Assembly (NCBI GenBank): GCA_951406725.2
Contig: OX597824.1
Location: forward strand, 92,132,001-92,196,000
Direction: 5' to 3'
From: Octopus vulgaris
Taxonomy: Eukaryota
DNA: 64,000 nucleotides
Under the pieces are notes generated by a model. The model saw nothing but the letters and a program-made list of their open reading frames with translations. It ran no database searches and was not told the DNA's origin. Shown here piece after piece: positions 5,728-59,795 of this stretch. How positions within the stretch are numbered: position 1 is the stretch's first letter; every line of letters begins with the position of its first letter. The position numbers were made by a program, and so were the translations under genes.

Positions 5728-6981
5728 AGTATATGATTGCAATATGTAACGCTCGACCAGTTGTCTACTTTTTTAAAATTTCTAAGTTGACCTTTTCTCT
5801 GATACCGTAATCCTATTTCTTTATATTTAAGATCTTCCCCTTCGTTTTTCTACTTATTCTCCTCATAGAGCATCTCTTACTTTCATTTTCTCTTCAGAAA
5901 TATAATCAATTCGGTCTATTAGGCCAATTATACTACGTTTAATATAATAATATAAACTTAGTGCCGCATTTCTACAGCATCTGCTAGTTTCACCGATCAG
6001 TATTTTCTCCACCAGATTGCCTAACAACTGTGAATAAATAATGGCAGTTTAGCAAAAATTTATTGCAGAACTTATTTCATTGTAGAATTTAGTGTTGCGA
6101 ATATAAATATAAAACTATACAGGTAAACATTAATCATTGCAACACATATAAAACTTTCTCTTAAAATTATTAATAAAAGGAATAATTTTCGTTTCAGCCT
6201 GTATTTAACGATACCTATTCCCTTATGAAAGTGACATTTGCGTACTTAATACCCTACTCATATATAACAACCATTCTCATTCCTATCATATATCATCCTG
6301 ATATAATATCAAAACGAATAAATTAAATTGATTTTTCTTCCCCGTGTGTAAATATATTCAGTGAGATAGCGATATATATATATGTTATATTTAATTTTCT
6401 AAAATCATAATTCTCTTAGACCTAGATTTTCTTCCTTATCAGGAATTACATGTCACATCTATTTTAGATGTAGAACGCTGCTTAATTGTCTTTGAAATCC
6501 GCCATTAAAATGTCATAATTTAGAGATATCTAATCAATAACCTATCAATAGAAATAAAGCACTTAAAATCCATTCTTTTGTTGGTTGTTAATTTTCCGAT
6601 TAAACCGAAACAAAATCTCCATTCTCTAACTACTTTATCCATCTTGGATTGTCGAGGCGAGTAGAGTCAGGCACCTCCTCTATAGATTCCTGTCAGAAGC
6701 AATCACCGTTATACTTTCTTTCGGGTTTGAAAACATGATCCGGTAAGACTACAGATATTAACCAATCATTTCATTTTTGGTCTAAAATCTACACTAGGTC
6801 CGCTGCCAATTGCTTCGGCCTGAAAGATCCATCTTGTGATTCTTTCCAGCTTCATTCTAATCTCATGTCAATATTATGGAAGCTGTGATCTTTCAATGCA
6901 GAGACTAGCATTTAGACATGGTCACACTCCCTGATCTCCCAGCTTTGTCCCCTGTCATGTAAAGATATTTCAGATACCATA

Positions 6982-7330
6982 GCCGTAGGAGTGGCTGTGT
7001 GGTAAGTAGTTTGCTTACAAACTATATGATTCCGGGTTCAGTCCCACTGCGTGGCACCTTGGGTGAGTGTCTTCTACTATAGCCTCGGGCCGACCAAAGC
7101 CTTGTGAGTGGATTTCGTAGACGGAAGCTATGTGTGTCTGTATATGTTTGTGTGTCTGTGTTTGTCCCCGCAACATCGCTTGACAACCGATTCTGATGTG
7201 TTTACGTCCCGTAACTTAGTGGTTCGGCAAAAGAGACCGATAGAATAAGTACAAGGCGTACAAAGAATAATTCGTGGGGTCGATTTTCTCGACTAAAGAC
7301 AGTGCTTCAGCATGGACACAGTCAAATGAC
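6982..7330 (+). mobile_element. SINE family A, near full length
   Basis: Colinear with 1361-1745. Confidence 0.9.
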
Positions 7331-9136: not shown

Positions 9137-9432
9137 GTCGATATATATGACAGGTTAGCTTGGGAGGTTAAGCAGTTGTGGTCGATGAAAATGGTGGTAG
9201 TTGTACCAATAATTGTGGGGACCCTAGGAACAGTGAGTAAAAATCTTGAGGCGTACATGAAACATCTAGGGGCTGCAATAAGGGTAGAGCACTTGCAGAA
9301 AACAGCACTACTTGAAACCGTTCGAATACTCTGCATGATGCTCGAAAAATATGGGTGTGTTACGTCAGTTCACTGGTAGGGAACAGCTGGCACCGTAGTA
9401 CATCTCCAGAGTTAGAAGATGCGCAAATACTA
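9137..9432 (+). mobile_element. 5'-truncated R4/Dong-type non-LTR retrotransposon (restriction-like endonuclease C-terminus plus 3' UTR)
   Basis: YDRLAWEVKQLWSMKMVVVVPIIVGTLGTVSKNLEAYMKHLGAAIRVEHLQKTALLETVRIL fits the RLE tail KYxxLxxEIxxLW...VPIVIGALG...LQKxALLGTARILR; begins directly after (AAT)n. Confidence 0.8.
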
Positions 9433-9837
9433 ATGAATAAATAAATAAATGAATACATAAATAAATAATAATCAGGGATTTGGTTTGAGACTTTTGTTGT
9501 ATTATTTCTTGTATTGTGTGTTGTTTGTGCAGTACAGGTTGTGTTCTTCCGTCGGATATCGGCCTTCTAAGTTATATGTTGTGGGCTTTGTTCATTTTGC
9601 TGGGTGTTTGAGGTATGTGTTTATTCCTGTATGTTTTTGGAGGAATGTTGCATAGCAGCTTGTATAAATCAGAATCTACTATTTCATAGTATTTATGGCT
9701 ATCTGTCCACCGTTCTTTCTCTTTTGGTTGTTTTTATTATGGGTCCTGTGTCCTGGGTCCTATTTTACAGTGTTTACTTTTTAAACTGAAAACTGGCCAT
9801 GGACAAGTGTCGATGTTCCTTTCGTATTTATAATTAG

Positions 9838-10147
9838 AGAGAATTAGAAATAATGATATTTCAATTTTTGAAAACCAGTGGATGTATTCCACTGAATTTA
9901 GCTCAGCACCGAAACGTGCTGGGTTCGGCTACTCCACAATGATAAGAGGCAACCACCTCGAAACTAGTCAGTAGTTGCCAGACCAGCAACGGTAAACTGC
10001 TGACCTCCCCTGTTCGAAGGTTATAATGGACACAGTTTTGTGTGTCCAATAGCTAGCTAGAGGCGATGGTCTCTTGTAGCTAATCAACGGCAGCATTCGT
10101 CCTATTTTTCTAGACTGCCATGTTAGCTTGGCAATAACTATTAATAG
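9838..10147 (+). mobile_element. Retrozyme-like ~310-nt repeat unit, copy 1, with degenerate hammerhead (9934-9974)
   Basis: ATGATAA(9939-45)-GAGG caacca CCTC-GAAA-CTAG-TC(9969); colinear with 12361-12640; downstream hairpin GGACACA/TGTGTCC (10028-47). Confidence 0.75.
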
Positions 10148-10863
10148 TAGTTATAATTATTATTGATGTATCAGTAAAAGACTTGGAACAAGCAGTAATG
10201 TACATATATAGAGGTCTTATATAAATATGGATAGATGTATAAGTAATTAAAATTTTAAATTCAAAATTTTACTCACGGGCTTGCAGTTCTCGTAACGAGA
10301 CACTGCTCTCCATGTGTTTACGTTTACACGTACGTGCCGCGAGGGCGGGGCAACTGGCAGAAGCTATTACTTGTTTAAATATTCTTCAAGAAAATTCTTT
10401 TAGTTTTCCCTAGGTGGTTCACATCAAGACACAGTTTCCTTTCATTTTTTTCATTGCTTTTTGTGAATTCTTGTTGTCGTTGTTATTATTTTTCATCATT
10501 CGGTAGTTTCAGGCAAATTTCTACAACATCACCTGTTACACTTCCGTGTAGTTGGGGGTGAGCGCAGCATTGTGTGTTCTTTTTTGTTGATTGTGAAGCG
10601 CAACTTCTCCTCGGTATCGTATTGCGTCACTTTCTTTTTTTATGGAGTGTTGTACTTGTATTTGCATTTTTGCGTTGTGTGTGTAATGCGTTGGTTACCC
10701 AAGCATTTGCAATATGGAGTGTGTTATGTGTTATTAGATTGTTTTGTTTAGGTTGCATGTGGGTTGTTCTTGTTGTTTTTGTTATTATTATTATTATTAT
10801 TATCATCATCATCATCACTATTATTACTATTATCATTATTATTATTATTATTGTTGTTATTAC

Positions 10864-10953
<90 letters not shown>

Positions 10954-11974
10954 CATTATTATCCATACTTTCATCCAATACTAAACTGTATGGAACACAT
11001 TTAGACAATGGGGTCTGCAATGTACCCACGATACAACAGATAACTAAGTCTTAAACACTTCTACCAGTTGTCCGATGCGACAGATTTGTTTCCTTTAATA
11101 AGTTCACTTACTCAGGACAATACTCACTACAAACAATTACATTCTTTTATTAATTCGCCATCTATCAGTGGCTTACCCTTCTGAGACAAGTTTTCCCTAT
11201 AACACAACTAAACATTTGTACATGTACCAGTTTTTTTTTTAATTGTTTTTTGTGAACTAAGCTTCTTCTTCACTTAATCTCTTTTCGTTTTCCTTCTTTC
11301 CCCGTTTAATTCTTTATATTGTGAGCCATGTTTGGCAGCATAGTGACGCTTAATATTATATTCCTGACATACAGCAGTTTCAGCATTACATATGAGGCAG
11401 GTAATATTATTGCATGCTTCAATTACTAAATATTATTCTGTCCATAGGATATTGAATTTTCTCTTTTCTTTCTGTTGTTTTTCTCTTCTTAGTATCGGAT
11501 GCCATGACCAAATAATTGCGCTATTAAAATTAACAATTGAAATTATTACGTAATCACGCCGATGTAAATATTCCAGAAACCAGAAACAAATACAGAATAA
11601 TTAGTCTCTTCCTCACAAAGCGTTAACATCAGACTAAGCCTAGACGAGAAACACCGAAGTCACTATCACTTCACATTGTAAACAAAGTTTGGGAAATAAC
11701 TCAATCAATATTGATCCGACCGCAAAAGATTTGAAGCTGAAACAATGGCTGTTAATTATGTATCAACACAATGGCTGAATCTACGAAGCAGAGTCAGCCA
11801 ATCTACGTCATAAACCCCAAGCCCCCCCTCATTTTACCTCCCTCTATTGAGGTTTTGGTCCGTCCAAAATAACACTGAGTTCAAAATAACTGTGAGTATA
11901 ATTTTCTCATCGTACATGATCAAAGAAAATGAAAATATAACTAGAAAATAACACGTATAATTAGAATTTGAATC

Positions 11975-12038: not shown

Positions 12039-12126
12039 TTCAAGTGAATGTTTCAGAAGAAAATAGGATTCTTTTAAAATATGATATTCCATAGACAGTA
12101 TTTCACGTGGGATATGGCCAGTTCCC

Positions 12127-12233
12127 AATTCAGTTGAATACATCTACAGGTTTTCAGAAATAGAAATATTATTATTTGTAAGACTCTCTAAAGGAGACTA
12201 CGGCAGCAGTTCTGCATATTAATAGTTATCGCT
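12127..12233 (-). repeat. Inverted partial copy of the 314-nt repeat unit
   Basis: Reverse complement matches 12315-12412 (gtaactattaatat..gctgccgtagtctc..ttagaaatat..tttctatt) and 9855-9898 (gaaaaccagtggatgtattccactgaatt). Confidence 0.8.
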
Positions 12234-12236
12234 AAG

Positions 12237-12640
12237 ATAGCTAGAGGCGATGGTCTCTTGGAGCTAATCAACGGCAGCATTCGTCCTATATTTCTGGCCT
12301 GCCATATTAGCCTGCCGGTAACTATTAATATCCAGTACCGCTGCCGTAGTCTCTTTAAGTGAGACTTAGAAATATTGATATTTCTATTTTTTAAAAGCAG
12401 TGGGTGTATTCCAGACTGGTGGATTCGGCAGCTCTGCATTGATAAGTGGCAAATACCCAGAAGCTAGTCTGCAGGTGCCTGAATACTAAGGGGAAGCGGC
12501 TGGCTTCCTCGTTGAATGTTATAATGGACACAGGTTCCTGTGTCACATAGCGAGCTAGAGGCGATGGTCGCTTGGAGCTAAACAACGGCAGCATTCGTCT
12601 AATATTTCTGGACTGCCATATTAGCTTGGCGATAACTATT
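12237..12640 (+). mobile_element. Retrozyme-like repeat, ~1.3 tandem units (period 314 nt), with degenerate hammerhead (12433-12475)
   Basis: gctagaggcgatgg at 12240 and 12554, gccatattag at 12301 and 12615 (both offsets 314). HHR: TCTGCA-TTGATAA-gtgg caaata ccca-GAAG-CTAG-TC-TGCAGG. Confidence 0.75.
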
Positions 12641-12650
12641 ATTATTATTA

Positions 12651-13573: not shown

Positions 13574-13692
13574 TACACATATGTATGTATGTCATTATTC
13601 AGTTTATTTCAAGATTTCTTGCCAAAAGAACCGTTTTCTCACCTACTTCCAAGGTTCCTCCATTGGAATTTCAACATGAACAGGCTATTTTT

Positions 13693-13990
13693 GTATGTAT
13701 GTCTGTATGTATTTAATTTTATTAGTATAAAGAGTATGGTTGCTTTCCAAACAATTCTTTTAAATATTATGTTTAAATAAAATATTATATAATTTCGTGT
13801 ATGGGCGTATAAAGTTTTGTTCTTTAAGGAAAACGTATGTATGTATTTCTGTATGTATTTAATTTTACTAGTATAAAGAGTATGGTTGCTTTCTAAACAA
13901 TTCGTTTAAATATTACGTTTAAATAAGATATTATATAATTTCGTGAACGGGCCTATAAAGTTTTGTTCTTTAAGGAAAATGTATGTATGT
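13693..13990. repeat. Tandem duplication, 146-bp unit x2
   Basis: ctgtatgtatttaatttta at 13703 and 13849; the units differ by scattered substitutions. Confidence 0.9.
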
Positions 13991-14007
13991 ATAAATGTAT
14001 GTATGTA

Positions 14008-14581: not shown

Positions 14582-14830
14582 GTGGAGGCATGGCTTCTTG
14601 GTCAGGAGGTGTTGGGCTCACGATCGAAAGATTACAGTTTCGTTTCCTGGACAGGGCGCCGCGTTAGTGTTCTTGACCGAAAACACTTTGTCTCATGTTG
14701 CCCCTGTCCACTCACCTGGCACGAATGAGTAATCCCACGACGGTCCGTTCAGGAGGGGAATGTAGACGCCACGGAAACTGGGAAACCGGGAACCCTGTCC
14801 CTACGAGTCAGTATAACTCGGAAAGGAAGT
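14582..14830 (+). mobile_element. SINE family C (tRNA head GTGGAGGC.., Meta/V-like middle, RTE-like tail), degenerate
   Basis: gtggaggcatggc..gtgttcttgaccgaaaacacttt..gtccactcacctggc..ggaaactgggaaaccggg. Confidence 0.65.
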
Positions 14831-15170: not shown

Positions 15171-15747
15171 TTCCTTTACATAATGCTTGCAATTTTATTT
15201 CGACAGTAAATGTGGCTTCTCAAAGTTATTTTCCTCGCTTCGCTCGCAAACTTCTCTTCGCGGTGAATTTGTTTCTCACACCTGTTTCTTAAACAGGAAC
15301 CGGCTGGCAAGTATTCCATGTAATATCGTAGTAGGATGGTGACAGGGGATGCTGTGCTAAGGGAAGAGATGCAAAGCTGAGCAAAGACGAAAGAAAGAGC
15401 AGATTTAGAATGAGAAAACGATACTTGCGGTGCTAGCGGTTTATTGATGGGCAAACCAAGGGCTAAGAATGAAAAATGGCAAAACTGAGAAATGAAGAGA
15501 AAACAGTAATATCTTTATCTATGTAATATTTTTTTAGGCTTGCGTTCCTCATCTTTCATTATATTTCATATAACTTCTAATTTAATTTCCTTAATTTCAT
15601 TTTGTTTTCGTATACTCATTTTTAATCATTTTTTCCCATTAACATTTAATCAGGTACAGTGTTCTTACTACTGCACAATGGTAAACATTGATCAGCACCA
15701 ACATTTCTGGGATGTTGGTCTCCTGTAAATGTCCTCATTCCATTATC

Positions 15748-16149
15748 TACTTTCTCTTTCTCTTTTACTTGTTTCAGTCATTTGACTGCGGCCATGCTGG
15801 AGCACCGCCTTTAGTCGAGCAAATCGACTCCGGGACTTATTCTTTGTAAGCCCAGTACTTATTCTATCGGTCTCTTTTGCCGAACCGCTAAGTGACGGGG
15901 ACGTAAACACACCAGCATCGGTTATCAAGCAATGCTAGGGGCACAAACACAGACACACAAACACACACACATATATATATACATATATACGACAGGCTTC
16001 TTTCAGTTTCCGTCTACCAAATCCACTCACAAGGCATTGGTCGGCCCGGGGCTATAGCAGAAGACACTTGCCCAAGATGCCACGCAGTGGGACTGAACCC
16101 GGAACCTAGTGGTTGGTTAGCAAGCTACTTACCACACAGCCACTCCTAC
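15748..16149 (-). mobile_element. SINE family A, full length
   Basis: Close match to the reverse complement of 1361-1772. Confidence 0.9.
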
Positions 16150-23251: not shown

Positions 23252-23668
23252 CTCTTTACTCTTTACTCGTTTACTCTTTTACTTGTTTCAGTCATTTGAC
23301 TGCGGCCATGCTGGAGCACCGCCTTTAGTCGATCAAATCGACCCCAGAACTTATTCTTTGTAAGCCCAGTACTTATTCTATCGGTCTCTTTTGCCGAACC
23401 GCTAAGTGGCGGGGACGTAGACACACCAGCATCGGTTGTCAAGCAATGCTAGGGGGACAAACACAGACACACAAACACACACACACACATATATATACAT
23501 ATATACGACAGGCTTCTTTCAGTTTCCGTCTACCAAATCCACTCACAAGGCATTGGTCGGCCCGGGGCTATAGCAGAAGACACTTGCCCAAGATGCCACG
23601 CAGTGGGACTGAACCCGCAACCATGTGGTTGGTTAGCAAGCTACTTACCACACAGCCACTCCTGCGCC
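23252..23668 (-). mobile_element. SINE family A, full length
   Basis: Near-identical to 1361-1772 (reverse). Confidence 0.9.
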
Positions 23669-23784
23669 TACGTTGTGTTTTTGTAGTAATGGCAATGCTT
23701 TTGTTATTATCCTGAAGGCGGCGAGCGGCAGAATGTTTAGCAGGCCTTGCGAAATGCTTATCGGCATTTGGTTCATCTTTACGT

Positions 23785-24240
23785 TCTCTTTTACTCTTTC
23801 ACTCTTTGACATGTTTCAGTCATTTGACTGCGGCCATGCTGGAGTATCGACTTTAGTCGAGTAAATCGACCCCAGGACTTATTCTTTGTAAGCCTAGTAC
23901 TTATTCTATCGCTCTCTTTTTGCCGAACCGGTTAGTTAGGGGTACATAAACACACCATCATCGGTTGTCAAGAGATGTTGGGGGGTGGGGACAAACACAG
24001 ACAAACAGACATACACACACACACACGCACACACACACACAAACACAAACACACACACACACACACATATACATATATACGACGGGATTCTTTCATTTTA
24101 CGTCTACCAAATCCACTCACAAGGCATAGGTCGGCCCGAAGGTGTTGTAGAAGACACTTGTCCAAGGCGGCACGCAGTGGGACTGAACCCGGAAACATGA
24201 AATTCGGTAAGCAAGCAACTTACCACACAGCCACTCCTAC
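23785..24240 (-). mobile_element. SINE family A, full length, abutting a family B head (23715-23785)
   Basis: Colinear with the family A copies. Confidence 0.88.
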
Positions 24241-24284
24241 GTATGTCTTAATTATTACTATTATTATTATTATTACTATTACTA

Positions 24285-28787: not shown

Positions 28788-29455
28788 TCAGGCACTAAAC
28801 ACTAAATTTCCCATTTTATTTGGAGAAAATTTGAACCAGATTTTTAATCACAGGAATATATTAACCCGTTAATAGATTTATGATTAACGGGTTATTTCTT
28901 AATTTTCATTTACCACATTCGGATGGCTATTCATTTATTTGTTAGAACTTCACCTACCCTAGATATAAGCTGAACTGCACCCGGATCCGATCTCAATTGC
29001 CCGTTTTAGAGAGCCGGATATTTGCGATAACAAGCCATGTCTTTATGCTGTGTTAATTGATCATCAAAGAATGACAGAATCGTACAGAAAGCTGCTTCGA
29101 TAATGAAACACAATAAGCACAATATGGATCATGTGGGGAAAATGGTTAATTAAATTGTTAATTAACAAATTTTTATTGATGTTTAGGTTATTTTCGAGAG
29201 TGACGTCATCACTTGTCGCGCAGTTCTGTGATTACAACTATATTTCTACGACCCTGTCTAATTCTAAGACGCAATTTTCTCTCAAAATCTTTTAAAATAT
29301 CTCCCTGTTTCGAAATCAAGGCAGAGTGAGATTTGAACCAGGGTGCTGTATTCAGCGGACCCGATGAACACATTGACCCTTCATTGAAAATAAAAGGGAT
29401 ATAATGATAAATCTCAGAGCGAGTTATATGTCAATCGACACTGGAAAAAGTATAT

Positions 29456-29700
29456 GTATTTGTGAAGGGAGCTGACTTCTCGTCGACAACCATGATTGTC
29501 ACACGCTGACGATAGGTAAACACCTTGAAACTCGAGTCCGTGTGTATCATGAGTTGAAGACGGGGAGGATGACTTCCCTTCACAAATACTGAGAGGGCAC
29601 AGATAGTGTGTCTATAGCCAGCTGGAGGAGATATCTTCCTGGGGCTACAAACTACAGTAGCATCCACCCTTAGGGGTTAGCCATATTCAAATGGCAAATA
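29456..29700 (+). ncRNA. Type I hammerhead ribozyme at the apex of a long rod-like hairpin; retrozyme-like monomer
   Basis: Stem I CACACG(29500-05)/CGTGTG(29539-44); core CTGACGA(29506-12); stem II AGGT-aaac-ACCT closed by U.U; GAAA(29527-30); stem III AC-tcga-GT (palindrome ACTCGAGT); cleavage triplet GUC ending 29538. Stem I extends via CATGAT/ATCATG, CAAC/GTTG, CTTCTCGTC/GACGGGGAG and a perfect 15 bp GTATTTGTGAAGGGA/TCCCTTCACAAATAC. Confidence 0.88.
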
Positions 29701-29832
29701 TGCGTCACAAAAAAGGGATATATATATATATATATATACCTACATAATACTTTTGATTGTAGGTATATATGAATATAAGTAGATGCGGTATATAGTTATA
29801 AATGCATATCTATCAATCAATTAATCAATCTG

Positions 29833-35410: not shown

Positions 35411-35735
35411 GTGAAGGCACGTAGCTTAATGGTTAGAGCTTTCGACTCACGATCGAAAGGTCGTGAGTTCAATTCCCGGCGAAGCTTTGTGTCCTAGAGC
35501 AAAACACTTTATTTCACATTGTTCCAGTCCACTCAGCTGGAAAAAATGAGTAGTATCTGTATTTCAAATGGCCGGCCTTGTCACACTTTTTATCACGCCG
35601 AATCTACTTGAGAACAACGTTAAGGGTACACGTGTTTTTGGAGTGCTCAGCCAGTTGCACGTTAATTTCACGAGCAAGCTGTTCTGTTGATCGAATCAGC
35701 TGGAACTCTCATCACCGTAACCGACAGAGTGCTCT
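35411..35735 (+). mobile_element. SINE family C (tail variant shared with 52770 and 46497)
   Basis: tRNA head, gtgtcctagagcaaaacactttatttcacattgttccagtccactcagctgg, then gagaacaacgttaagggtacacgtg. Confidence 0.85.
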
Positions 35736-44218: not shown

Positions 44219-44589
44219 GTCAGCGCACCTTTGGTTAACTCAATTCAGATGCTGTTATTGATCTAAAAGCGACATCAGATGTTTCATTTTTTTGTTGTTC
44301 TCAGGTCGCCGCTACATCCGGAGAACGCGGTATTCTTTCTATAGCGAAAATATATGTCCGTTGCATTTAATAAATACTATAGATGTTAACTAATTATTGT
44401 TGTGTGTTGGTGGAGGACAGATTTGCGTGGGAGCAAGCAAATTTCGTGATGATGGATTAACAATTTTATAGTTCTTAGAGAGTCAGCATGGTGGAGCTGT
44501 AGATTAAACGTGTGACTGTGTGACACGGGTTATGTGCCGTCCTGGTATGTATGGAGCAGGCAAGCCTAAGGTGGTATATCTGGATTGTT

Positions 44590-44971
44590 TGGTGCCAGGC
44601 ATGCCTTTGGTAGCAAGTATAGGTGCCAGGCATGCCTTTGGTAGCAAGTATAAGATAGTTCACTGAGAGACATAGTTGGCAATTGTGTGCTCCGTTTGAA
44701 TATAGAGGGGCGTTGTCAATGATACGCCATTTGATGTTGGCGAAATCATTCCTATGGTCACGAAGTCTCTGGATAAAACGGGGCTGGAGAGGTAGGTGGA
44801 GTTTTCCCTCGCTCTGCACGTAAAAGGGTGCTTACCCTGCACATAACTTGCCTTGAAGTTTTTGACTGTCATTCTTGTGTAGCGTCTTGTAATGTCATCG
44901 GATGGTGTGAAGGTGGCTCTACAGACCACAACTTTTGTGAGACAGCAGCCTCTCCGTGTGCATTTGGTAGC
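44590..44971 (-). pseudogene. Penelope-like element (PLE) GIY-YIG endonuclease region, frameshifted remnant
   Basis: Two frames give KCTRRGCCLTKVVVCRATF...RRYTRMTVKNFKASY...ENSTYLS and RLRDHRNDFANIKWRIIDNAPLYSNGAHNCQLCLSVNYLI, matching the PLE pattern CPLxGxCLxxxVVY..YIGxT..FKxRY..TxLS..IxWxII..YSN...CxLCLxEK. Confidence 0.75.
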
Positions 44972-45637
44972 ATTTAAGCTACCAAATGCACACGGTTGGG
45001 ATATGTAATGGAGCTGAGGGTAATGTGTGCCTCTGCCTATTTTAATATGAGATTCTAGAAGCGGTGTTCATTAAGTAGAAGTAATTAACTTCAACATTTT
45101 ATGGTTTTAGGAACGTTAATAGCAATGATATCACTTGACAAACAACACAACTACCACCAAACGTAGCGGTGACATTTGCCAACCAACAGCCTGTCCGACC
45201 ACGTGAACCTGACAACAATGATAAGATCTGATATTGCTTCCAAACCAATAATACCAACTCAGTTGTACATAATGATTGATGATAATCAGTGAATCATCGG
45301 TAATTTTTACTTTGCATAAATTATGAATGATTCGCTGACGTCATTGTAAAAATTTACAGGATCTCTAAAATTCTTTTACATCGTCGCAACATTAGAAGAT
45401 ATCAATATTCCGTCAATATTCTGTCCAAGGAAGAGCAACAGCTTATATTACATTTTGGACACTTTCTTGGATTAGCAGATTGGGAATATTTCATATCCAC
45501 TGCTAATTAGGTTATATAAATAAAATAATTCTCCTGAGAACTACTCTCATGTGTCGTTTCTATGGCGTGTAGGTGACAGAGAGATCACAGTGGTCTAACT
45601 GAATACGATGCTACTTCGTCGCAGAATTAAACAACTA

Positions 45638-51132: not shown

Positions 51133-51140
51133 TGTGTGTT

Positions 51141-51455
51141 TGTGAAGGTGCATGGCTCAGTGGTTAGAGCGTCGAGCTTACGATCGTGAGTTTGTGAGTT
51201 CGAATCCCGGACCGGGCTGTGTGCTGTGTTTTTGAGCAAGACACTTCATTTCACGTTGCTCCAGTTCACTCAGCTTTAGAAATAAGTTGCCCCTTTGCCT
51301 TTCCCTTGAATGACATCGATGGCGTGGAGAGAGGAGGCCGGTATGTATGGGCGACTGCTGGTCTGCCATAAGCACCATTGCCCGGACTTGTGCCTGGGAG
51401 GGTAACTTTCTAGGTGTAATCCCATGGTCAGTGTCGTGACCGAAGGGGGTCTCAG
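51141..51455 (+). mobile_element. SINE family C head joined to a Ceph-domain/RTE-5'UTR-like segment
   Basis: tRNA head (TGGCTCAGTGG, GAGTTCGAATCCC), then ggagagaggaggccggtatgtatgggcgactgctggtc..ttgcccggacttgtgcct..aactttctaggtgtaatcccatggtc; the same segment occurs at 20078-20170 (minus). Confidence 0.75.
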
Positions 51456-56886: not shown

Positions 56887-57149
56887 GAGCTGAGAAAATG
56901 GTTAGCGGCATTTCGTCCGTCTTTAGGTTCTGCAGTCACATTCCGCCGATGTCAACTTTGCTTATCATTCTTTGAGGCAAAGCAAGCTCTTCATCTATCA
57001 CAGCTCTGCCTACGTGAATAACCATCTTAATTATATCACCAACAGTTTCTTTTCCGATGATGGTTTGCAGTTATTTTGTTACGTGCTTTGCTTTGACCAC
57101 TGGTGAGCATAAAAAGAGGAGTAGGTGAGGCTAAAGTTTTCTACTATAC

Positions 57150-57557
57150 ACTTTTACTCTTTTACCTGGTTCAGGCATTTGACTGCGGCTATGCTGGAGC
57201 ACCGCCTTTAGTCTAGCAAATCGACACCAGGACTTATTCTTTTGTAAGCCTCGTACTTATTCTATCGGTCTCATTTGCTGAACTGCTAAGCTACGGGGAC
57301 GTAAACACGCCAGCATCGGTTGTCAAGCGATGTTGGGGGCACAAACACAGACACACAAACATATACACACACATACATATATATATATACACATATATAC
57401 GATGGGATTCTTTCAGTTTCCGTCTACCAAATCCACTCACAAAGCTTTGGTCGGCCCGAGGCTATAGTAGAAGACACTTGCACAAGGTGCCATCCAGTGG
57501 GACTGAACCCGGAACCATGTGGTTCGTTAGCAAGCTACTTACTACACAGCCACTCCT
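57150..57557 (-). mobile_element. SINE family A, full length
   Basis: Colinear with the family A copies. Confidence 0.9.
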
Positions 57558-58044
57558 AAACATACATTGAAATATGATGTTTACCTTTAATTATTTGATA
57601 GCCCCGGGACATCCCTGATTGAGCTGTAGTGGGATGAAAATAATATGAAGCGCGAAAATCCCGTCTTTTCAAAACATAGTTTTTCTATGAGTAAATTATA
57701 TATTGGTGATATTTAAGACATCAGGATAGAGTTTCATAGAAATTTGCTTGCTATTTCTCGAACCTCAATCATTCTCAGAGTAAAACATTTGATATTTTAT
57801 CTTCGACTTGCGATTCTTATAATAACTCGTTGCGAATCTCCTCTCTTCTGAGAAGTAGACAAACACCTTCAGTTTCCGCTCCAAATTCTGACAATCAAAA
57901 GTCGCTTTCTACTTCGTTGTAACCGATTTTGTTCAGTTCTTTCGGGAATTATGCAAATACCTTGTGAATTGTCATCTTACATTAATTGTATTGCCTATAT
58001 TTGTTTCACATATTTCTGTCTTTACTATACTATTATTATTATTA

Positions 58045-58931: not shown

Positions 58932-59545
58932 ATTCTTTTACCCTTTTACATATTTCACCCACTTGACTGCGGTCATGCTGGAGCACCGCATTAAGTGTCT
59001 TCGTCTAAGAAATCGATCCCAGCACTTAGAATTTCTAAGATTAGTATTTATTCTACGTAAGTTTCATAAAGGTCTTCGTGATTGACTGAAGAAATTATAG
59101 ATGGTCTTGCTATCATGTGACATTCGGCCATGTTCGAAAGTTTGTTGTAGTATTATGAACCCAACTTCTGATGCGTGTTCTACTACTATGAACCCAGCTT
59201 CATCCAGCAAAGGGCCAAGTAATGCTTTAAAGCCTACGCATTAGATTCCTTCTCCAGCTACAGCGAATTCTCTTGAGCGATTTCTAGTTTACGTATCTAG
59301 CTTTAAGTAGCTTGCGATTTTCAGTTTATTACAGATGGAGAAGTCGCCGTTGTGGCACTGAACGATCAGTCCATATTACCTTTGACTTATGTTATTTCTT
59401 TGGAATAATCTTAGTTCTTCGGATGGATTATTTCCAGGTTATATTTTCTATTCCTAAATGTTGTAAATGCACACATTTATAGATGTCAATAATCACCACT
59501 TACTAATAATTACGGTTGATTTAATAATCTGTATTTTTCGACTTT

Positions 59546-59795
59546 GTGGAGGCGCGTGGCTTAGTGATTAGGGTGTCAGCATCATGATCGTAAGATTGTA
59601 GCTTCGATTCCTGGTCCCGGCGACGCGTTGTGTTCTTGAGCAAAACACTTCATTTCACGTTCCTCCAGTCTACTCAGCTGGCAAAAATGAGTAACGCTGC
59701 GATGTACTGGCGTCCCGTCCAGCTGGGGAGCACATACTCCATAGAAGCCGCGAAACGGGGCCCATGATCCTGGCTAGGCTTTAAAAAGGCGCATT
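59546..59795 (+). mobile_element. SINE family C with RTE-like tail
   Basis: Head gtggaggcgcgtggcttagtg; tail ggggcccatgatcctggctaggctttaaaaaggcg. Confidence 0.85.

Follow-up and report, generated by a model that had tools for sequence, protein, structure and literature searches.

Hammerhead Elements at the Locus

The DNA analyzed here was a single 64-kb stretch, referred to below as the window, in which three loci carry a type I hammerhead ribozyme (HHR) followed by a domain of short hairpins (Table 1). We refer to these as elements A, B and C, and to a truncated copy adjoining B as copy D. A, B and D represent a 314-nt unit with a GC content of 46%, to which C is a distant relative. No conserved reading frame was present across the copies and the unit is thus non-coding; a coding remnant in the 3' hairpin domain was ruled out, as A/B and C are separated by a frameshift and stops.

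The HHR of C is of the canonical form, with helices I, II and III of 6, 4–5 and 2 bp, the last with a palindromic loop, and is not of the minimal type without helix III found in Penelope-like elements (PLEs) (PMC4209133). Canonical metazoan HHRs are expected to cut best as dimers (PMC4209133), and in view of its 2-bp stem III and palindromic loop the ribozyme of C would be expected to be active chiefly in tandem transcripts, in dimeric form; the helix III regions of two molecules were computed to pair at −12.1 kcal/mol. The ribozyme-bearing extended stem I of C folds at −61.2 kcal/mol (z −7.76, reached by 0 of 200 shuffles), and is weaker in A (z −2.04) and B (z −1.18). A preliminary description of this DNA had stated that the HHR stems pair despite their entirely different sequences. 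The core of C is intact, but those of A and B are damaged, and both ribozymes look decayed. The U3-A8 core variant seen in B has been described (PMC4209133).

Table 1. Positions of the hammerhead elements, their parts and other repeats in the window (TSD, target duplication).
Feature	Position	Strand	Remarks
Element C	29399–29708	+	~310-nt monomer, 44% GC; ends set by family contig depth
C, left TSD copy (12 bp)	29392–29403	+	same 12-mer at 29711–29722
C, right TSD copy	29711–29722	+	continues into (TA)n
C, extended stem I around ribozyme	29456–29589	+	~42 pairs with bulges
C, type I HHR	29500–29544	+	only type I core without a mismatch in the window
C, HHR subparts	29500–05/29539–44; 29506–12; 29513–17/29522–26; 29527–30		stem I; core; stem II; GAAA
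C, predicted HHR cut	29538/29539	+	short stem III with palindromic loop
C, hairpin 1 of 3' domain	29595–29613	+	fold z −3.12
C, hairpin 2 of 3' domain	29615–29647	+	outer stem, conserved internal loop, 6-bp inner stem, GAUR loop
C, AC-rich linker	29648–29665	+	110–127 nt past predicted cut; inside family depth peak
C, fourth short hairpin	29666–29677	+	computed fold of C; sequence unlike A/B
C, hairpin 3 of 3' domain	29680–29695	+	13 nt upstream of family 3' end
Element A	9828–10159	+	monomer 9837–10150 between 9-bp direct repeats (9828–36, 10151–59)
A, apparently decayed HHR	9933–9975	+	A3.A8, stem I mispaired
A, 3' domain	10028–10132	+	
Element B	12358–12640	+	followed by (TAT)n
B, HHR	12433–12475	+	U3-A8 core, G at 15.1, weak stem II
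B, 3' domain	12527–12630	+	
Copy D	12235–12357	+	upstream unit, truncated at its 5' end to hairpins 2 to 3, with 26-nt spacer
Inverted copy of unit junction	12127–12237	−	head to head with 5' end of D
SINE-like copies	1359–1776, 6980–7330, 15742–16149, 23257–23670, 23784–24241, 57137–57558		
tRNA-derived SINE heads	35411–35552, 14582–14732, 51139–51275, 59543–59694		

Homology between C and the 314-nt Repeat

The preliminary description had proposed distant homology between C and the 314-nt repeat, to be judged partly against dinucleotide-shuffled controls. Local alignment of the C domain (29590–29700) scored 62.5 against A and likewise against B, far above the shuffles (22.2 ± 4.1 and 22.2 ± 3.9), with 0 of 1000 reaching 62.5 in each comparison, and the homology was upheld. 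When 300-nt tiles of the entire window were compared on both strands, the best tile for B outside the A/B/D copies was C (the next scored 44), and the best for C was A/B. Global alignment found C to be colinear with A and B across the whole ~310-nt unit, and a degenerate hairpin-2 pattern matched four times in the 64 kb, at A, D, B and C, against 0.00 expected from 100 shuffles. The hairpin strings reported earlier were located at their positions in all three loci, and the distance from the cleavage site to the conserved downstream anchor was as had been counted, 83, 85 and 87 nt in C, B and A, respectively (82, 84 and 86 nt lying between).

Conservation differed between the modules of the unit. 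The 3' domain of C was identical to A at 66 of 107 positions and to B at 67 of 107 (62–63%), the highest value outside the HHR core. Identity of C to A/B was 53–64% in the ribozyme module, 39% in the head, 23–38% in the last 13 nt and 9–40% in the extended stem I arms (4/44 to 20/50). The earlier proposal that the element is conserved in structure more than in sequence was not supported in that form, as the 3' domain is the best conserved in sequence outside the HHR core. These per-module values indicate that the part of the unit that has kept its structure free of its sequence is the extended stem I and not the hairpin domain. The accompanying views, that several subfamilies exist and that the 3' domain appears constrained to pair, agreed with our results.

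Fold of the 3' Hairpin Domain

The three hairpins previously described were present in the same order in all three loci; a fourth, short one, which lies after hairpin 2 and before hairpin 3, had been overlooked, and in A, B and the loose ends of contigs was recognized by eye. The inner stem of hairpin 2 in C had been given as AGGA/TCCT, and we replaced this by the homologous 6-bp stem, GGAGGA/TCTTCC, with its GAUR tetraloop. The corresponding stem in A and D, AGAGGC/GTCTCT, also closes a GAUR tetraloop, and the AGGCGA/TCGCTT register suggested for B is that used by B's own minimum-energy fold.

Hairpins 1 and 3 comprise 11 pairs; eight of these are invariant across the copies, which leaves the two hairpins uninformative on structure. 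Among the 3' domain hairpins of the four copies, hairpin 2 alone shows compensatory pairs, in a register that differs from the one described earlier; in three pairs both members have changed, a result equaled by 5 of 500 shuffles. The covariation alignment was 94% paired, compared with 32–43% in slid controls. The covariation is drawn from four related copies plus variant tables, and 5–25% of unconstrained alignments reach 5/500 by score or percent paired. Because only four related copies contribute, the compensatory pairing in hairpin 2 is suggestive only as a sign of structural constraint. The fold z-scores of the 3' domain were modest (−2.1 to −2.5).

A covariance model, R1, when searched against the window returned its four training copies (A, B, C and D) only; seven further matches were rejected (E 0.69–4.8), and neither the tiles nor R1 found another repeat in the window that shares the 3' domain. 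A pattern scan of metagenomes gave five loci, all bacterial-looking and without a nearby HHR, which were dismissed as chance matches, and the pattern had 0 matches in each of the genome contig and viral contig collections. Rfam gave 0 matches on the C region (29420–29715) and, on 12120–12640, a single match judged to be chance, with none real on B; in the whole window, nearly all of the matches were microsatellite look-alikes among the 150 of 336 listed. At that sensitivity, a known small RNA or second ribozyme does not explain the domain. Inspection by eye gave no support for HDV-like or twister folds.

The Family in Public Contigs

Parts of C were found in 19 of the 24 runs listed, from seven studies and under four organism labels; the listing named no RNA run with the element. 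The contigs of four runs were mapped onto C at 80% likeness; X15 is possibly the source of the window, and the organism and study labels of X16 and X6 are different from its own. The contigs mapped to the C family numbered 3893 in X15 and 1532 in X16, and 89 and 29 in two other runs that are possibly RNA. The unique flank of C had a depth of 42.4 in X15 and 5.8 in X16. Relative to this flank, summed contig depth, which is not a copy number, was ~2.9e4-fold (X15) and ~3.9e4-fold (X16) in the 3' domain, 4.6e3- and 6.6e3-fold in the HHR, and 250- and 540-fold in the head. The C family is a very high-copy repeat. Its depth jumps at ~29399, climbs through the ribozyme, peaks at 29638–29671 and stops at 29708, a gradient that may partly reflect the recruitment of more subfamilies at 80% identity and not truncation. 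Loose ends with (TA)n occur at both sides of C, the one before 29399 being a single listed loose end.

Within the HHR core the most variable position was N7, and the majority variants form a canonical G10.1–C11.1 pair at 29513/29526. Both sides vary compatibly at 29513/29526, 29514/29525, 29491/29551 and 29628/29635, in counts that come from 40 of 59 variant rows and in which both-side changes are not tied to one molecule. Pairing was preserved by 16 of the 22 stem variants listed (null 12.8 ± 1.3, p 0.02), a test that excludes five rows at the T.T site 29513/29526, with which it is inflated to 20/27 (p 0.0003). When split, the test gave p 0.06 for the 3' domain (6/7) and p 0.18 for the ribozyme side (10/15).

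Of the 331 loose ends, 24 were listed, and among these GTCCT/AGGAC arms at the fourth hairpin, as in A and B, were seen in three of the four runs; one loose end had GCCAC/GTGG arms at hairpin 3, and another was hairpin 2 in inverted orientation, its 6-bp inner stem being perfect. In X15 and in X16 a single contig skips 165–166 nt (29423–29594), so that the whole ribozyme stem is gone and the head and 3' domain are kept; these are possibly ribozyme-less derivatives. Loose ends at 29553 in X1 and X6 join a different ribozyme-side sequence, with an apparently different cleavage triplet, to the shared downstream part, and we report them as putative other subfamilies.

Insertion Anatomy and Proposed Mode of Mobilization

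Matches of at least 12, the length of the TSD of C, occurred in 3 of 5000 random pairs; the 9-bp TSD of A was equaled in 50 of 5000, and at the B/D locus no TSD was found. The 3' ends of A, B and the C family lie 10–18 nt past hairpin 3, and microsatellites flank C and B. D and B form a partial tandem with a period of 314 nt (12239–12331 versus 12553–12645, 90%), and the inverted copy of the unit junction together with D would form a giant hairpin (−131 kcal/mol). The inverted arm at 12127 terminates in the head and not past hairpin 3. PLEs may have an additional tail of 30–40 nt, which reflects two start sites of reverse transcription. Here the 26-nt spacer occurs only at the tandem junction, and one X6 contig departs from C at 29665, 43 nt before its end. 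Within the 64-kb window each locus has at most one HHR, and the D/B tandem holds a single one. Relative to B, element A has a 22-nt insertion (9893–9923) that forms an 8-bp hairpin and carries an A-box-like string.

The unit has a canonical type I HHR, a length within 170–400 nt, a GC content below 50%, no coding capacity, repeated copies and TSDs longer than 4 bp. In these respects, and in occurring as monomers and in a tandem that is partial here, it resembles the non-LTR retrozymes of coral, mussel, axolotl and Xenopus (PMC7229834, bioRxiv 10.64898/2026.07.22.740005). It differs from metazoan retrozymes in that its copies here are mostly dispersed, apparently 5'-truncated monomers and in that a domain is conserved between subfamilies that have diverged by ~40%. 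We lean towards the interpretation that A, B/D and C come from diverged subfamilies of one non-autonomous, non-coding ~310-nt type I HHR retroelement, a metazoan non-LTR retrozyme, copied in trans by a PLE. Mobilization of the family by a PLE is probable. Partial tandems, inverted 5'-truncated copies and a microsatellite bias are hallmarks of PLE insertion (PMC8557442), and the partial tandem, the inverted 5' copy at D/B and the microsatellite flanks are of this kind. Counting against copying by a PLE, TSDs and 3' microsatellites would also suit SINEs driven by a LINE.

A parallel for the 3' domain is provided by the PLE Poseidon (PAc) of Anolis, whose reverse transcriptase (RT) requires RNA just past the HHR (ORF +20 to +172, with the cut at +26) and starts in an AC-rich stem-loop at +111–118, ~85–92 nt past the cut (PMC11167929). 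The Poseidon protein nicks and prefers AT-rich DNA, and HHR cleavage is unnecessary, uncut RNA being used (PMC11167929). From this match, which is one of position, with an AC-rich linker inside the conserved domain and the fixed 3' end adjoining it, we consider the chances to be about equal that the 3' domain is the element that a PLE RT would bind and initiate on. More tentatively, and with somewhat less conviction, we propose that the four-hairpin domain is a cis-acting RT-binding and initiation element that has been kept across subfamilies while the ribozyme arm turns over, that it could be the missing motif that would name a PLE as partner, and that the unit may have spread mainly in the manner of a SINE, from uncut linear RNA with priming at a fixed 3' end and not from circles.

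Under the interpretation of a retrozyme copied by a PLE, the unit would be transcribed, and a Penelope-like RT/GIY-YIG protein supplied from elsewhere would bind the four-hairpin domain, 55–160 nt downstream of the ribozyme, and nick AT-rich or microsatellite DNA. Reverse transcription would begin just 3' of hairpin 3, and priming past this hairpin would give the fixed 3' end, the frequent 5' truncation and the occasional inverted 5' copies. Copies that retain the HHR would have to derive from uncut or more-than-unit RNA, with ribozyme cleavage being mainly that of dimers. We suggest that the 3' domain is kept in both sequence and fold because the protein reads it, and the extended stem I may be retained as a fold only. 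An autonomous partner with the 3' domain was not found within the 64-kb window, and no ORF with RT plus GIY-YIG adjoins A, C or D.

It is unlikely, in our view, that the family is instead a rolling-circle retrozyme, whose tandem arrays would be transcribed, cut and ligated and whose hairpin domain would serve circle folding, stability or transcription. The 314-nt period at D/B, the canonical HHR with its loop 2 and extended stem I, and the circular folds of the unit (−96 and −108 kcal/mol) would be expected of such an element, and abundant circles are formed from the retrozymes of mussel, coral and axolotl (PMC7229834). However, two HHRs at one locus were seen nowhere in the window, the fixed 3' ends and a depth that declines towards the 5' end suit linear templates, and the loose ends past 29708 are (TA)n. 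Moreover, no joint from the end of C back to its start was present among the five joints and one row listed, although short contigs can hide such joints, and for this reason circle stability is a weaker rival to RT recognition as an explanation of the 3' domain. We give less credence still to the copies being solo pseudo-LTRs (pLTRs), 5'-truncated ends of an autonomous PLE of which the domain would be the terminus. PLE insertions are mostly 5'-truncated with one terminal repeat kept, and the retrozymes of Xenopus match pLTRs (bioRxiv 10.64898/2026.07.22.740005), but A and C begin near the same place and are flanked by TSDs, (TA)n precedes 29399 in the one listed loose end, A, C and D lack an adjoining ORF, and the HHR is not of the minimal PLE type.

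It is improbable that the unit is SINE-like and owes its movement to a LINE (RTE or R4/Dong) having the same 3' tail, in which case the HHR would be a passenger or would serve in 5' processing. TSDs of 9–12 bp, 3' simple repeats and 5' truncation fit that explanation, as does the abundance in octopus of RTE (RTE-BovB) and Dong-R4 elements, with which Penelope elements are also abundant (PMC8967140). It is at odds with the absence of a tRNA head (ARAGORN, 0 genes), with A/B boxes not being common to the copies, as the box-like matches in A are missing from B and C, with the confinement of the 3' domain to these elements among the window repeats, and with the inverted and tandem anatomy at D/B. 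That the hairpins are merely inherited sequence whose structure is unselected seems to us the most improbable of the explanations considered. The near invariance of hairpins 1 and 3 in sequence and a domain fold z of only −2.1 to −2.5 could be read in this way, whereas the compensatory pairs in hairpin 2, the compatible variants of other copies, together with their alternative stems, and the sharp contrast with the flanking modules argue for the pairing having been maintained.

Relation to Known Systems

Schistosoma Sm-alpha, newt satellite 2 and cricket pDo500 are repeats of ~300–500 nt with type I HHRs and a weak palindromic stem III, have Pol III or snRNA-type promoters and are largely in tandem. 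In contrast to these, conserved A/B boxes were not found in A, B and C. The unit also resembles the pLTRs of PLEs, especially Poseidon, in which an HHR precedes a structured, AC-rich region close to where the insertion ends on its 3' side (PMC11167929), and which share AT-rich targets and partial tandem and inverted 5' copies. The likeness has limits, as this region of PAc forms the beginning of its ORF and the HHR is minimal, whereas here there is no ORF and the HHR is canonical.

The available text of a 2020 review describes metazoan retrozymes as having no conserved motif that indicates their partner (PMC7761336). The retrozymes of Xenopus have been linked to PLE pLTRs, with monomer shares ranging from 0 to 1, in a study whose available text includes no mollusc (bioRxiv 10.64898/2026.07.22.740005), and the giant squid genome paper, in the part available, reports 235 hammerhead-1 matches without analysis. 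We found neither a cephalopod retrozyme nor a 3' domain of this kind in the literature searched, and Repbase, Dfam or supplements (e.g., the structures of PMC7229834) may already contain the family. PLEs are suspected as the enzymes that copy animal retrozymes from co-occurrence and pLTR similarity, and the literature that we found names no recognition motif. The conserved 3' module makes this question of retrozyme mobilization testable: with a structured module of ~100 nt that is shared by diverged subfamilies and lies beside a fixed 3' end, the partner can be sought by covariance search, and the domain can be put directly into the in vitro assay already established for PLE priming. If the domain were not an RT handle, the elements would be one more retrozyme family, in a lineage without one in the literature searched.

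Other Repeats and Remnants

The repeat content of the window looks octopod, and several remnants of other elements lie in it. On the minus strand, 44560–45070 is a frameshifted remnant that resembles a Neptune/Hydra-type PLE GIY-YIG endonuclease; it lacks the 3' domain and had no informative Pfam or Atlas match. The C-terminal remnant at 9140–9379 (+), similar to an R4/Dong restriction-like endonuclease, directly follows (AAT)n and had 0 Pfam matches. A short frame at 9500–9770 (−), which faces element A head to head at its 5' end, has a stretch that we assume to resemble the N-terminal RT region of Neptune-type PLEs, and 11000–11190 (−) and 11300–11460 (−) are presumably degenerate fragments of hAT/SPIN-like transposases. 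A SINE-like family of ~400 nt with an internal CA/TA repeat is represented by six long copies of 71–96% identity. Rfam matched a tRNA at 35415–35487 (39.3 bits), within one of the tRNA-derived SINE heads, and 13692–14004 is a tandem duplication of 146 nt (2.1 copies, 92% matches).
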